This document shows positions 677 through 22,798 of a DNA stretch of 44,826 nt, piece after piece. How positions within the stretch are numbered: position 1 is the first letter of the stretch; each line of letters opens with the position of its first letter. A program made the translations under genes and the position numbers. The notes under the pieces are model-generated. The model was not told the origin of the DNA. It did not search any database and was given only the letters and a program-made list of their open reading frames with translations. Origin of the DNA: a virus (Duplodnaviria > Heunggongvirae > Uroviricota > Caudoviricetes); IMG/VR virus record IMGVR_UViG_2718218398_000008. The stretch is one strand, 5' to 3'.

Positions 677-2700
677 ACTGCCTCCTTGATTTGCCTGTCA
701 TTTAATTCTTTAAACCAGACTCTGAAATTTCTGATGTGTCCAAACAAATGACGCGTTCCTGCTGCGGTCTGCCCACCAAACCGGTACGATGTTGCTGTAA
801 CTCCAAATATTTTACCATTAAGGTTTGTTGTATAATTACCATTGCATATTGCATTTACTGATAAATCAGATTTAGCTCTCACACCCACAATGAACCTTTC
901 TCCATCTGAGGCAATTTGTGGCTGAACCATTCCTACGTTGGCGCTTATCTTTCCTGTTGCAACAAACCCCAGCGATAAATAATTATCATCAATACTGTGC
1001 CCTCCAACATCAAATATCCTTGGCGCAACATTGGGCGGTGTACTCCAGTTCCTGCTTACTTCGCACAATACCGTAAAAGGCCGTGTTGACAGGTTATTCT
1101 GCGATGGGATAGTAACTACATCACTTGCGCGTGTTGTTGGCATTGTAGTTACAATAAATGACGATGCCGTATTGCCCAGTTCAATTTGCGGCGTCGTCAT
1201 GGTTAATGTTGAGTCATCATAGAATGTCTCATTACTTATTTTATTTGTCATATAAAAAGCACAGTTAACGGTATCAATGTCCGTATTAGCTGTATAAGTG
1301 GCCTCATAGTAGGTCCACTCGCCCTGTTGTTCAGCTTTGGCTGTTATAAGGGATGTATTACCGCTTACTGTTGCGATCCGGGTATCCAGATCAAGATAAG
1401 AGTCAGCAGAGAAGGTATCTGTTCCACCAATAATAACTGAAACTCTTAACCTGCATCGTGCTTTAGCGCCTTTAACCCGGCACGAAAAAGTGAAACATTC
1501 ACCACTTGCCAGCGGGAATCTGTCTGCTGCAACCACACCATGCACAGTATAGCCACCTGTTGTTCCCACTATACTTTCCGTGGGTGTCACCGTGGCATAA
1601 TTGAACCCCTGTTTATCAGTGCCAAATGTTTTATTCAGTGCGGAATGAACAGTCCATGAGTCTGGTTTATTTGAGTTCCTCAGATAATTTGTCCTCTGTC
1701 CTTCAATCAATAAGCCATCGCGCTCAAATCGCGGTTCGTCAACTTCAGCAAGCTTGAGTTGGCCGGACTTATTAATATACGTTGCTGTTGAAGCACGTTT
1801 AAACTTAACAATCTTGTCGCCTGGCATTGTTATTTCATCGTCACCAATAACTATCTTTTTATAAGATGGCGAAAAACCCGTAATCATATCCAGTGAATCG
1901 TTAAACGGTATCCACACATCAGGCAGCGGCGGCACTATATTCGCACAGGGCTCTGCAGTCACTTCCGCTGCGGCTTCTGCGCGGTCTGCCGCCTTTTCAG
2001 CTCGTGTCGCTGCCGACAGAGCCTCATCCTTTTTCTGCCCGGCCTTTGTTGCGTCTGCTGCGGCCTCCCGCGCTTTTGTGGTGGCGACTCCGGCATTTTC
2101 AGCGGCTGACTCTGCATTACGGCGGGAAGCCTCTTCACTGTCTGCGGAGGCTTCTTCTGACGCACGGGCATTTGTCTCTGAACGTTCTGCCGCTGTTGCT
2201 GCGTTTTGTGCGGCTGTTTTTGAAGAAGCTGCCGCTTTCGCGCTGTTACCTGCATTCGTCTCTGATGTTTTCGCCGCGTTCCTGGACGATGCCGCTGCTG
2301 TTTCTGATTTCTTTGCTGCCGCTGCGCTCTGAGAGGCGGCTTCAGCGTTGCGTGCCGCCTCTTCCACCATCTTTTCAAAACGATACAGTGCCTCCGGACA
2401 AACATCATCTTCTGTTGCAGCGCCCAGAAAATCATTCAATGTCCCCGGCTTAGAATCCTCATACACGGTGATGGTCCCGGCATGTGAAGGCGGAAAACCT
2501 TCAACCAGCAGGGCGACGCTGTACTGGCCATACTCAACATCCATGCTGTAACGTCCGGCTTCATCCGGATTTTCTGAGGCCACCGTGTTCACCACAACTG
2601 TGGTGCTGTTACGTTTTGCTTTGAGCTGAATGGTGCAGTTCTGTATCGGTTTTCCTGCACCGTCTTTCAGCACACCTGAAATCTGTACTGCCATATTCAC
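673..2700 (-). CDS. stf: side tail fibre protein (Stf-like): lambda-type N-terminus, Ala/Ser-rich low-complexity shaft, non-lambda C-terminal domain
   Basis: N-terminus MAVQISGVLKDGAGKPIQNCTIQLKAKRNSTTVVVNTV... matches lambda Stf N-terminal domain; Ala/Ser/Glu-rich repeats; C-terminal ~400 aa beta-rich and unlike lambda. Confidence 0.75.
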   Translation of the reverse strand: MNMAVQISGVLKDGAGKPIQNCTIQLKAKRNSTTVVVNTVASENPDEAGRYSMDVEYGQYSVALLVEGFPPSHAGTITVYEDSKPGTLNDFLGAATEDDVCPEALYRFEKMVEEAARNAEAASQSAAAAKKSETAAASSRNAAKTSETNAGNSAKAAASSKTAAQNAATAAERSETNARASEEASADSEEASRRNAESAAENAGVATTKAREAAADATKAGQKKDEALSAATRAEKAADRAEAAAEVTAEPCANIVPPLPDVWIPFNDSLDMITGFSPSYKKIVIGDDEITMPGDKIVKFKRASTATYINKSGQLKLAEVDEPRFERDGLLIEGQRTNYLRNSNKPDSWTVHSALNKTFGTDKQGFNYATVTPTESIVGTTGGYTVHGVVAADRFPLASGECFTFSCRVKGAKARCRLRVSVIIGGTDTFSADSYLDLDTRIATVSGNTSLITAKAEQQGEWTYYEATYTANTDIDTVNCAFYMTNKISNETFYDDSTLTMTTPQIELGNTASSFIVTTMPTTRASDVVTIPSQNNLSTRPFTVLCEVSRNWSTPPNVAPRIFDVGGHSIDDNYLSLGFVATGKISANVGMVQPQIASDGERFIVGVRAKSDLSVNAICNGNYTTNLNGKIFGVTATSYRFGGQTAAGTRHLFGHIRNFRVWFKELNDRQIKEAV

Positions 2701-5700: not shown

Positions 5701-6235
5701 TATTAAACGGGCGCGGCGGCAGGTTATCCACCACCACCGAGGCCAGATACTGCGAGGTGGTTTTGCCCTTAATGGTGATGTCTTTTTCCGTCACCCAGCC
5801 ACCGTTACGCTGTATCTGAACCAGCAGGCGAACTTCCGACGGATTCCTGTCTCCCTTTGAGGTGGTTTCCACCAGTGCCTGTACACCGAAGGTAAAGCGC
5901 AGACGGTCGATGTTTGCCGACGTGATGGTCCGGGTGATCGGCGTGTCATATTTCACTTCCGTACCCAGCACCGTCTCGGAGCCGGAGGATTCAAATCCCT
6001 CCGGCGGTGACTGCTCCTGCTCACCGGCCCGGAACACCACCGTGACGCCGGATATATTGGTATTCCCCTCACTGTCCAGCACCGGCGTACTGTTCAGCAG
6101 CACGCTTTTTAATCCATCCACCGGACCTTCAACCGGCCCTTCGCTGATGGCATCGATCACACTCAGCAGCTGCGTGGACTTCAGGTTGTCCTTCGCTTCG
6201 CGCGGGGTATGCCCCTTACTGCTGCCTTTACCCAT
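2753..6235 (-). CDS. J: tail tip / host specificity protein J (1160 aa), C-terminal receptor-binding region diverged from lambda
   Basis: Length and position after I; conserved lambda J motifs through most of the protein; last ~150 aa differ from the lambda LamB-binding domain. Confidence 0.95.
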
Positions 6236-17292: not shown

Positions 17293-20973
<3,681 letters not shown>

Positions 20974-20999
<26 letters not shown>

Positions 21000-21519
21000 T
21001 CAGCAACCCCGGTATCAGTTCATCCAGCGCGGCTGCTTTGTTCATGGCTTTGATGATATCCCGTTTCAGGAAATCAACATGTCGGTTTTCCAGTTCCGGA
21101 AAACGCCGCTGCACCGACAGGGGGATCCCGTCGAGAATACTGGCAATTTCACCTGCGATCCGCGACAGCACGAAAGTACAGAATGCGGTTTCCACCACTT
21201 CAGCGGAGTCTCTGGCATTTTTCAGCTCCTGTGCGTCGGCCTGCGCACGCGTAAGTCGATGGCGTTCGTACTCAATAGTCCCTGGCTGGAGATCTGTCTC
21301 GCTGGCCTGTCGCAGTTCTTCAACCTCCCGGCGCAGCTTTTCGTTCTCAATTTCAGCATCCCTTTCGGCATACCATTTTATGACGTCGGCAGAGTCATAA
21401 AGCACCTCATTACCCTTCCCACCGCCTCGCAGAACGGGCATTCCCTGCTCCTGCCAGTTCTGAATAGTACGGATACTCGCGCCGAAAATGTCAGCCAGCT
21501 GCTTTTTGTTGACTTCCAT
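20974..21519 (-). CDS. nu1: terminase small subunit Nu1
   Basis: Lambda Nu1-like MEVNKKQLADIFGASIRTIQNWQEQGMPVLRGGGKGNEV..., 181 aa. Confidence 0.95.
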
Positions 21520-21696
21520 TGTTCATTCCACGGACAAAAACAGAGAAAGGAAACGACAGAGGCCAAAAAGCCCGTTTTCAGCACCTGTCGTTTCCTTTCT
21601 TTTCAGGGAGTGTTTTAAATAAAAACATTAAGTTACGGCGAAGAAGAACGGAAACGCCTTAAACCGGAAAATTTTCATAAATAGCGAAAACCCGCG

Positions 21697-21708
21697 AGGT
21701 CGCCGCCC
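21697..21708. other. cos: cosN cohesive end site (12-nt lambda-type sequence AGGTCGCCGCCC, i.e. GGGCGGCGACCT on the other strand)
   Basis: Exact 12-mer ~180 bp upstream of nu1 start; flanking sequence resembles lambda cos region. Confidence 0.8.
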
Positions 21709-21856
21709 CGTAACCTGTTGGATCGACGGAAAGGACCCGAAAACGAGAATAATTATCACTTACAGCAAGAATCGAATCTGATCTATTATGGTGCTTGCTA
21801 TTATGTGCCGGCACAAGTGCGTCGTTTACCGTCATTTCACACAGAGGCATCATCAA

Positions 21857-22108
21857 ATGAAAATCAGAAATATTCTCGCTATCTCCCTTGCGACATCATC
21901 CTTCAGTTGCCTGGCATTTAAATCCTCGCCCAATGTGCTACCAGGACCAACGAATCAACTAACTGCGGTAGAAAGTAAAATTATCGGACATTTTTATGCC
22001 CCACACAGTACATTACCCGGAACAACCATCACAGGGACATGTGACGCCTCCCCCGTCCCGGGATGCACCTGTCCGTTTTGTACTATGCTGCGTAGCCAAA
22101 ACCGATAA
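21857..22108 (+). CDS. small secreted Cys-rich protein (84 aa with signal peptide; mature part ends ...CDASPVPGCTCPFC...)
   Basis: Start chosen at MKIRNILAISLATSSFSCLA with AGAGG ribosome-binding site ~9 nt upstream; four Cys clustered near C-terminus. Confidence 0.5.
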   Translation: MKIRNILAISLATSSFSCLAFKSSPNVLPGPTNQLTAVESKIIGHFYAPHSTLPGTTITGTCDASPVPGCTCPFCTMLRSQNR

Positions 22109-22169
22109 CATCCGCATTTACCTGGTATTCCATGATGAGTTCACGCAGCGACTGATAGAGGAAGGAAAG

Positions 22170-22349
22170 ATGGTTAGTAAAAGCAAGGCGCATTGCCGCC
22201 GCATGCTGCAGGCATTGCAACAGACGAGAGCAGGTATTTTTGACCAGTTGGAAAACTGCCAGCATACTTTGCCCGAGTATATCGCCATCTCATCGGAAAC
22301 CAGTGCAACTCTTATTCATCGGGTTCCACCAGAGAAAAAGAAGAAATGA
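22170..22349 (+). CDS. hypothetical small basic protein (59 aa)
   Basis: Strong GAGGAAGG ribosome-binding site immediately upstream of ATG; followed by a hairpin; no family recognised. Confidence 0.35.
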   Translation: MVSKSKAHCRRMLQALQQTRAGIFDQLENCQHTLPEYIAISSETSATLIHRVPPEKKKK

Positions 22350-22362
22350 ACAGTGAGGCGTT

Positions 22363-22387
22363 GTGTGGCATACAACGCCTTCTTCCA
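22363..22387. terminator. stem-loop (9-bp perfect inverted repeat AGGCGTTGT/ACAACGCCT) between convergent genes
   Basis: Inverted repeat read directly; weak T-tract, so terminator function uncertain. Confidence 0.4.
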
Positions 22388-22471
22388 TCATTCCTCGTCA
22401 GCCATGACAAAAATATAACCGCTGGCTCTTTCATTTTTCTCCTGCTTCCAGCCCCTCTCTACCTGGAAGCA

Positions 22472-22798
22472 TCAAGGACGTGACGGCGTAAAGATAAATT
22501 GTCTCTTCACTCCCTGACAGGGGCGATTCTTTTCAAATCGCCATTTCGCCATGGCCTTCACCACTTCATCACGAAACAAATTATGAGGCTCTGAGCGGAG
22601 AAAAACGATCCGTGTCACAGTCCCATCAGCACCAATATCGAACTTAACCTCAACCAGCCCCTTGATATAATTTGCTGCAGCATATTCCGGATATCGTGGA
22701 TACACCGTCACTAATTGCCGGGGCTCATCAGCTTTTTGCTGCGAGCATCCCACTGCCAGGACAGATAACAGAAAAAGTAGTAAAAGGCGTCTTTTCAT
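22472..22798 (-). CDS. lipoprotein with TonB C-terminal-like domain (start at MKRRLLLLFLLSVLAVGC lipobox)
   Basis: Signal peptide plus lipobox LAVGC; C-terminal region resembles the TonB_C fold. Confidence 0.65.
   Translation of the reverse strand: MKRRLLLLFLLSVLAVGCSQQKADEPRQLVTVYPRYPEYAAANYIKGLVEVKFDIGADGTVTRIVFLRSEPHNLFRDEVVKAMAKWRFEKNRPCQGVKRQFIFTPSRP

Follow-up and report, generated by a model that had tools for sequence, protein, structure and literature searches.

A stretch of viral DNA recorded in IMG/VR as IMGVR_UViG_2718218398_000008 (44,826 nucleotides (nt); hereafter the window, to which all positions refer unless another record is named) carries, beside its cohesive-end site cos, two small open reading frames (ORFs) on the plus strand between 21857 and 22349. 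The original prediction, made from the letters alone, took the first (ORF1) for a secreted cysteine-rich peptide of toxin-like, signalling or metal-binding type and the second (ORF2) for its small cytoplasmic partner. A question raised by this locus is whether either frame is a real gene, whether the two belong together and what their products might do. The best explanation, to which we assign a probability of about 0.72, is that ORF1 is a genuine, mostly unannotated moron gene for an exported protein with four cysteines (Cys4), that its chromosomal relatives are Zur-controlled, and that ORF2 is not its partner.

ORF1 and its exported Cys4 product

ORF1 runs from an ATG at 21857 to a TAA at 22108 (+) and is predicted to encode the precursor, 83 amino acids (aa) long, of a small exported Cys4 protein, as judged from its homologues, its substitution pattern and its intact haplotypes. 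A Shine-Dalgarno sequence, AGAGG, lies 9 nt 5' of this ATG (21843–21847, +). The initiation context ATCATCA(A/G)ATG is common to the Escherichia coli, C. koseri, Klebsiella and Salmonella copies and the sequence farther upstream differs, so that the start is placed at 21857 and not at the upstream ATG at 21788.

A word-index search returned 22 homologues of 82–84 aa with 54–77% identity in Escherichia, Citrobacter, Klebsiella and Salmonella, and a profile search of 1.84 billion representatives gave 30 hidden Markov model hits and ~20 further members of 79–85 aa with 27–55% identity; ORF1 and its length are thereby conserved in at least eight genera. Related loci were collected with a narrow alignment, which recovers only members bearing CPFCTML(R). 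In a codon alignment of six loci, the pairwise ratio of non-synonymous to synonymous substitution rates (dN/dS) was 0.09–0.20, synonymous sites were saturated (proportion of synonymous differences, pS, 0.47–0.85), and third codon positions held 50–65% of the differences; the closest pair of ORF1 genes shows 71% amino-acid versus 68% nucleotide identity. ORF1 is intact in 23 of 23 haplotypes from 73 IMG/VR viral contigs, and ~80 near-identical copies differ by four synonymous and five non-synonymous changes with no stops or indels. These comparisons indicate that ORF1 is a genuine gene under strong purifying selection.

The amino-terminal 20 residues, MKIRNILAISLATSSFSCLA (21857–21916, +), read as a signal peptide cleaved before F21. 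Judged by the rules for signal peptidase I (a positive n-region, an h-region of 10–16 residues and small residues at −3 and −1, A-x-A), the sequence offers an MKIR n-region, the hydrophobic core NILAISLATSSFS and the cleavage site C-L-A↓F (the arrow marking the cut), as expected of a Sec substrate. The family consensus at this site, drawn from 24 diverse members, is ALA↓FQAK, and the invariant A-x-A↓F bears out the signal peptide that had been proposed. The mature protein, starting at F21, would have ~63 aa; the exported, cysteine-rich character of the product thus agrees with the original prediction, and its lengths of 84 and ~64 aa each need correcting by one residue, to 83 and 63. Near the carboxy terminus lies the cluster C62-x7-C70-x-C72-xx-C75, embedded in GTCxAxPVPGCxCPFCTMLR (22040–22081, +) and exactly the CX7CXCX2C pattern described earlier. 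A20, F21, C62, G69, C70, C72 and C75, all four cluster cysteines among them, are invariant in the 24 diverse members, and L78 and R79 are nearly so. On these features, the ORF1 product is read as an exported small cysteine-rich protein with a Sec-type signal peptide.

Neither ORF1 nor the family alignment matched anything in Pfam, NCBIfam, PHROGs, PADLOC or PDB by profile search, in keeping with the earlier failure to recognise the protein, and literature searches covering Zur and pliG, c1265, cysteine-rich Zur targets and phage 21 morons turned up no account of it. The family consists of uncharacterised Enterobacteriaceae proteins of about 80–85 aa, whose database entries are named only 'hypothetical', 'uncharacterized' or, automatically, 'Lipoprotein'. 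Several database proteins (P0003, P0006, P0004, P0022 and P0027) are frameshift chimeras of ORF1 with its +1 frame or with ORF2, and reflect indel variants or assembly errors in the C-rich run at ~22040–22060. Two long, low-complexity, eukaryote-like proteins with no Pfam match (P0045 and P0047) hold four to six tandem copies of P[IL]PGCNCPKCTxLRN. This repeat has the GCxCPxCxxLR core also found at the carboxy terminus of the ORF1 family, which suggests that the motif is an autonomous unit, possibly a metal-binding one.

Predicted Zur operators and the homes of the family

The proteobacterial consensus of the Zur box is GAAATGTTATA-N-TATAACATTTC with the core TGTTATAnTATAACA, and pliG is a proven Zur target in E. 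coli (PMC4219657). We scanned 341 kb of fetched loci with TGTTATANTATAACA, accepting matches of at least 12/14. All 16 matches adjoin an ORF1 homologue, and 15 of them stand directly in front of the homologue or of its preceding pliG gene. The remaining Zur-like match (12/14) lies downstream, in Enterobacter (L021 5320–5334, ~75 nt past the ORF1 stop), where it is also upstream of a gene for a 627-aa HflK-like membrane protein.

The predicted sites upstream of the homologues are of the TGTTATAGTATAACA type. In Salmonella, the box matches the consensus at 14/14 and stands 50 nt before pliG, or before the ORF1 homologue where pliG is absent; in such lineages, the same box abuts the Cys4 gene. 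Boxes of 13/14 occur at −89 in Kosakonia and two Phytobacter species and at −107 in the Klebsiella chromosomal-type copy, which was fetched after the 341-kb scan, and boxes of 12/14 at −98 in Enterobacter and, in a weaker form, at −44 in C. koseri. The chance of one such match per 130-nt upstream region is roughly estimated at ~1.5e-3, and the match recurs in at least six independent lineages; for this reason, the family is probably induced by zinc starvation in its chromosomal homes, via the predicted Zur operators. The metal-binding option of the original prediction thereby gains indirect support.

The chromosomal homes differ from genus to genus. In several Salmonella lineages, pliG, the ORF1 homologue, a bor homologue and an omptin gene follow one another on one strand (L006, L020 and L029, 4454–7200; L026, 5951–8157), the 133-aa product of the gene that precedes the ORF1 homologue being PliG; the structure of Salmonella Typhimurium PliG, 4dy5, is titled 'Gifsy-1 prophage protein'. 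The cluster may be an islet, derived from a prophage, for envelope defence under the control of zinc starvation. Elsewhere, the homologue forms a single-gene islet: flanked by a lipid A acyltransferase gene and icd in C. koseri, flanked by fecI and narL in Citrobacter sp. JGM124, after pagP in Kosakonia and Phytobacter, and also in Enterobacter. The ORF1-family gene thus travels alone.

The family also resides on mobile elements. In E. coli, it occurs in two prophage types, in each case with cos/Nu1 on one side and the lysis genes on the other, both antisense to it, and in the second type a DUF3950 gene (L009 6644–6835) directly follows the ORF1 homologue. A further 66 Klebsiella plasmid records, mostly of conjugative plasmids, carry a homologue, and the plasmid copy examined adjoins a degenerate cos, a ZigA-like GTPase gene and a gene for a Fur-family regulator. 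We rejected this neighbourhood as a link to zinc, since the degenerate cos marks the copy as a prophage remnant and the adjacency may be accidental.

The cos-proximal setting and the status of ORF2

The window represents an E. coli prophage of the lambdoid group that resembles phage 21. Its segment 21709–22500 matches the right end of phage 21 (OL657228) at 100% identity; the phage 21 record aligns with the window from 21709 on, where the linear phage 21 genome ends. Of 5,426 complete E. coli genomes, 1,222 contain the same DNA at ≥80% coverage. The cosN cohesive-end sequence aggtcgccgccc (21697–21708) is identical to the lambda end region and is the complement of GGGCGGCGACCT, the cohesive end established for lambda. 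The packaging termination subsite cosQ, annotated in phage 21 (L001 24–30), maps to 21732–21738 (−). The late genes for terminase A (19074–20999), Nu1 (20974–21519) and Rz (23604–24065) are all on the minus strand.

ORF1 lies ~150 nt from cosN, just inside the right cohesive end, and ORF1 and ORF2 both fall within the first 650 nt inside this genome end. ORF1 is on the strand of bor/iss, antisense to the late operon, and stands between cos/Nu1 (−) and the lysis genes (−), as morons do between phage modules. Like a moron, it is also present in some and absent from other syntenic relatives: lambda (NC_001416) and most phage records lack it, as expected from the earlier remark that it is not a standard lambda feature, and only seven phage records match it. 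The guanine-plus-cytosine (GC) fraction falls to 0.41–0.50 across the ORF1 region. This layout is that of a lysogenic-conversion 'moron'. A scan of 21400–23400 against Rfam returned only sub-threshold noise.

Two further genes share this end of the prophage. The bor/iss gene for a serum-resistance lipoprotein (23279–23572, +, the strand of ORF1) matches Pfam Lambda_Bor at 1e-30 and is annotated as iss by the Prokaryotic Genome Annotation Pipeline (PGAP). A gene for a lipoprotein with a TonB carboxy-terminal domain (22472–22798, −, the late strand) matches Pfam TonB_C at 1e-12, and PGAP calls its product a TonB family protein. The TonB_C protein has a lipoprotein-like signal (LAVGC), and it is under purifying selection, with 10 synonymous and 4 non-synonymous changes; its best PHROG match, phrog_1267, is labelled 'Rz-like spanin', a label that looks mistaken. 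It is conceivable that this protein acts as a periplasmic TonB-box decoy.

Upstream of ORF1 lies a Fur-box-like 7-1-7 palindrome, CGAGAATAATTATCA (21744–21758), which matches TGATAATnATTATCA at 12/14 and is 99–113 nt from the ORF1 ATG. It is the sole match with at most two mismatches in the 44.8-kb window, where 0.1 would be expected. At the same position, lambda has the perfect TGATAATGATTATCA (L032 ~2556–2570, minus strand), and the palindrome is also kept in the E. coli prophage type of L009 (~5861–5885) and degenerate in L003. It sits 6–8 nt beyond cosQ, at 6 nt in the window, ahead of whichever moron fills the cos-proximal slot. The palindrome could be an iron-responsive operator, for which it is a candidate by its letters, or part of an extended cosQ. 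A PhoP box (GTTTA...ATTTCA at −33) was also considered and rejected, because a transcription start and a ribosome-binding site could not both fit between it and the ATG and because it is not conserved in the homologues. In lambda, the slot of ORF1 is taken by a 64-aa DUF3950 ORF on the bor strand (Pfam 1.9e-20; NC_001416 48112–48303, complement; L032 2213–2404, minus), which is unannotated. This ORF resembles ORF1 in its cos-proximal slot and strand, just after the Fur-like palindrome, and in being overlooked in NC_001416; its protein is unlike that of ORF1, being unrelated and having no signal peptide, and the two occur in tandem in one E. coli prophage type.

ORF2 (22170–22349, +), a basic frame of 59 aa with a net charge of ~+5, begins 61 nt after the ORF1 stop, close to the ~60 bp noted originally. 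The strong ribosome-binding site then attributed to it is present in so far as a purine run, GGAAGGAAAG, directly precedes its ATG; the spacing of just 3–4 nt is short for a Shine-Dalgarno sequence. That ORF1 and ORF2 constitute a functional module of a secreted peptide and a cytoplasmic partner, as had been supposed, is nonetheless very unlikely. Their common strand and close spacing, the purine-rich run before ORF2 and the hairpin after it, the 20 of 23 haplotypes that keep ORF2 intact, the listing of phrog_4843 (PHROGs) for it from a scan run in the 22171 frame, and its annotation by PGAP in some genomes all speak for such a pair. However, no ORF2 accompanies any diverged ORF1 homologue: tblastn found no ORF2 DNA at the other ORF1 loci (Salmonella, Klebsiella, Citrobacter, Enterobacter, Kosakonia, Phytobacter and the second E. 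coli prophage type), and a protein database search returned near-identical E. coli copies only. The conservation that was to decide the matter is found for ORF1, across its genera, and not for ORF2.

The variation within E. coli also weighs against this pairing. ORF2 is frameshifted in two lineages: a variant of O157-type prophages, present on 486 contigs, has gained 1 nt after codon 5, and another haplotype has lost 1 nt. Among the ~80 near-identical copies, it has accumulated three synonymous and seven non-synonymous changes together with two frameshifts, against a neutral expectation of 21% synonymous, and its density of single-nucleotide polymorphisms is 5.6 per 100 nt versus 5.1–6.6 in the flanking non-coding DNA. 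With a polymorphism density equal to that of intergenic DNA, ORF2 behaves as an unconstrained, fast-evolving and lineage-restricted sequence and is probably non-functional as a gene. The TonB_C gene served as the positive control for constraint in the same copies, its 10 synonymous and 4 non-synonymous changes being free of stops and frameshifts. Most simply, 22109–22354 would be either an untranslated 3' tail carried by the ORF1 transcript or DNA in decay, with a hairpin common to ORF1 and TonB_C at its end.

This hairpin (22355–22381), noted originally as following ORF2, was confirmed: a GC-rich stem of 12 bp (−19.8 kcal/mol) lies between the convergent ORF1 (+) and TonB_C (−) genes, and its folding z-score is −3.1, with 1 of 200 shuffles folding equally well. 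It stands 244 nt downstream with a weak T-tract, and a stricter terminator scan made no call there. The hairpin is a candidate bidirectional terminator that probably ends the ORF1 transcript.

Public records present this region differently. ORF1 is not called in any phage or RefSeq E. coli record inspected, other ORFs being annotated instead. In the curated phage 21 record there are two antisense calls (22083–22265 (−) and 22312–22434 (−) are listed among the public calls), PGAP varies between genomes, calling an antisense ORF of 60 aa in some and switching to ORF2 where that ORF is broken, the PhiR47_2 record has a 117-aa alternative frame (21996–22349, +), and the ev017 record has yet another frame. 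The antisense 60-aa ORF (22083–22265, −; WP_000881610.1 of PGAP, CPT_21_75 of phage 21) shows no synonymous and seven non-synonymous changes among the ~80 copies, together with one frameshift and the nonsense change E46* in 23 loci. By this substitution pattern, the antisense ORFs are clearly spurious and worse supported than ORF2. The annotation should accordingly be corrected by adding ORF1 and dropping the antisense 60-aa ORF.

Possible functions and significance

ORF1 shares with the lambdoid morons of the Bor/Iss and Lom type a small, exported envelope product, a place near the lysis–cos end on the strand opposite the late operon, a patchy occurrence among lambdoid phages and a GC content below that of its flanks, and in the Salmonella islets a bor homologue directly follows the ORF1 homologue. 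Unlike Bor, the ORF1 protein is cysteine-rich, has no canonical lipobox and shows no sequence relationship (no Pfam Lambda_Bor match), and unlike these morons in general, the family is also found away from prophages, where Zur boxes precede its genes. The periplasmic proteins of the Zur regulon, ZinT, ZnuA and PliG, offer another comparison. The ORF1 family resembles them in being exported and in having, in several genera, an operator of the TGTTATAnTATAACA type ahead of it; in Salmonella, a single perfect Zur box precedes pliG and the homologue that directly follows it (PMC4219657). It differs from them in its much smaller size (~63 aa mature), in the lack of homology, in candidate ligands that are four Cys instead of His, Asp or Glu, in a regulation that is predicted only, and in the window copy that has no Zur box.

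The precursors of the heat-stable enterotoxins STa and STb resemble ORF1 in their Sec signal peptide, poorly conserved middle, conserved cysteine-rich carboxy terminus and location on a mobile element; they differ in sequence, ORF1 having no Pfam toxin match and a four-Cys CX7CXCX2C pattern versus the six Cys of STa. Since the family is common in the plant- or environment-associated genera Kosakonia, Phytobacter and Raoultella, an enterotoxin role is argued against. Known secreted toxin families were rejected more widely, as no Pfam, NCBIfam or PDB match appeared at E≤1 and the Cys pattern differs, so that nothing upholds the toxin-like option of the original prediction. A class II microcin precursor was rejected as well, for the leader of ORF1 is of the Sec type and not the GG type, and the contexts examined hold no exporter or immunity gene.

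What might the exported protein do? We consider it plausible, at somewhat less than even odds, that the Cys4 site binds, scavenges or hands over periplasmic zinc; alternatively, the four Cys might form two disulfides made by DsbA, locking a small functional knot at the carboxy terminus. The prophage copy has lost its Zur box and presumably relies on a promoter of its own for expression in the lysogen, with the Fur-like palindrome as a possible control. In its boldest form, the proposal is that ORF1 represents a new family of Cys4 mini-proteins, periplasmic and Zur-controlled, that bind or hand over zinc in host-imposed starvation, and whose gene lambdoid prophages captured and stripped of Zur control; as a moron favouring fitness or virulence, it would then have spread beside iss/bor to roughly one in five sequenced E. 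coli. Taken as a whole, this chain is tentative and rather unlikely.

Several observations weigh against the preferred reading of ORF1 as an exported Cys4 moron protein with Zur-controlled relatives. The window copy is without a Zur box, no match of at least 11/14 occurring from −300 to +20 and none of at least 12/14 in the window, so that zinc regulation of this copy is unsupported; the phage-borne copies at large, the window copy included, have no Zur box. The boxes of the relatives are themselves predicted operators. No consensus sigma-70 promoter is found between cosQ and the ORF1 ATG, and expression in the lysogen is assumed. Within E. coli, constraint on ORF1 is weak, as seen in the 4:5 ratio of synonymous to non-synonymous changes. 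AlphaFold2 gave no confident fold, with a predicted local distance difference test score (pLDDT) of ~60 and a predicted template-modelling score (pTM) of 0.22 in both runs (one on the whole precursor with 24 sequences, one on its mature portion with 33). Cys4 zinc sites would be unusual in the oxidising periplasm, where two disulfides are at least as plausible. Finally, C18 within the signal peptide is nearly invariant in the close enteric subfamily, and the automatic UniRef names of some members read 'Lipoprotein'.

These last two points are the mainstay of an alternative in which the enteric subfamily, the window copy included, consists of lipoproteins cut by signal peptidase II before C18, which would be anchored in a membrane and not soluble in the periplasm. 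A lipoprotein is recognised by a lipobox, [LVI][ASTVI][GAS]C, that ends the signal peptide and has a conserved Cys; the near-invariance of C18 extends over 19 close homologues, and the residue at −1 to it is S or G. However, the motif of the window copy, S-F-S-C18, lacks the usual L, V or I at −3, position 18 is Ala in most of the wider family, where the A-x-A↓F site of signal peptidase I is invariant, and this peptidase accepts Cys at −3, all of which leave the alternative improbable. Less probable again is that the prophage copy serves the phage itself, for example by superinfection exclusion or by acting, jointly with the TonB_C lipoprotein encoded next to it, on an envelope receptor or the TonB system. 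Several family members are indeed phage-borne and near packaging genes, with the TonB_C gene adjacent in the window, but many homologues lie in the chromosome, outside prophages, as single-gene islets that have Zur boxes, PADLOC returned no match, and the co-occurrence with TonB_C is confined to the phage-21-type module.

A serious rival, though unlikely on balance, is an envelope-defence role under host conditions, with ORF1 as a disulfide-stabilised periplasmic inhibitor of, or decoy for, a host antimicrobial effector and zinc starvation only as the cue for the host interior. The company the gene keeps accords with this role: in Salmonella, the Zur box, pliG (a lysozyme inhibitor gene), the ORF1 homologue, the bor homologue and the omptin gene follow in this order on one strand, PagP is the upstream neighbour in Kosakonia and Phytobacter, the C. 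koseri homologue adjoins the lipid A acyltransferase gene, and ORF1 of the window is on the iss/bor strand. In addition, Cys pairs in the periplasm are normally oxidised by DsbA. On the other hand, the protein has no similarity to the inhibitor families Ivy, PliC/MliC and PliG in Pfam, NCBIfam or PDB, and the neighbours vary between genera, which makes guilt by association weak.

Overall, ORF1 is a new, uncharacterised prophage moron and a candidate periplasmic protein of the Zur regulon, and not a new kind of system. It represents a conserved and overlooked gene ~150 nt from cos in the classical model phage 21, and illustrates how a prophage may detach a host stress gene from the regulator that controls it. 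The Zur boxes of its homologues are among the best findable in these genomes, which makes the family a cheaply testable candidate for a new zinc-starvation-response protein in Salmonella, Klebsiella and Enterobacter. If it is truly a new Zur-controlled Cys4 family, it would be an unrecognised part of enterobacterial zinc acquisition.

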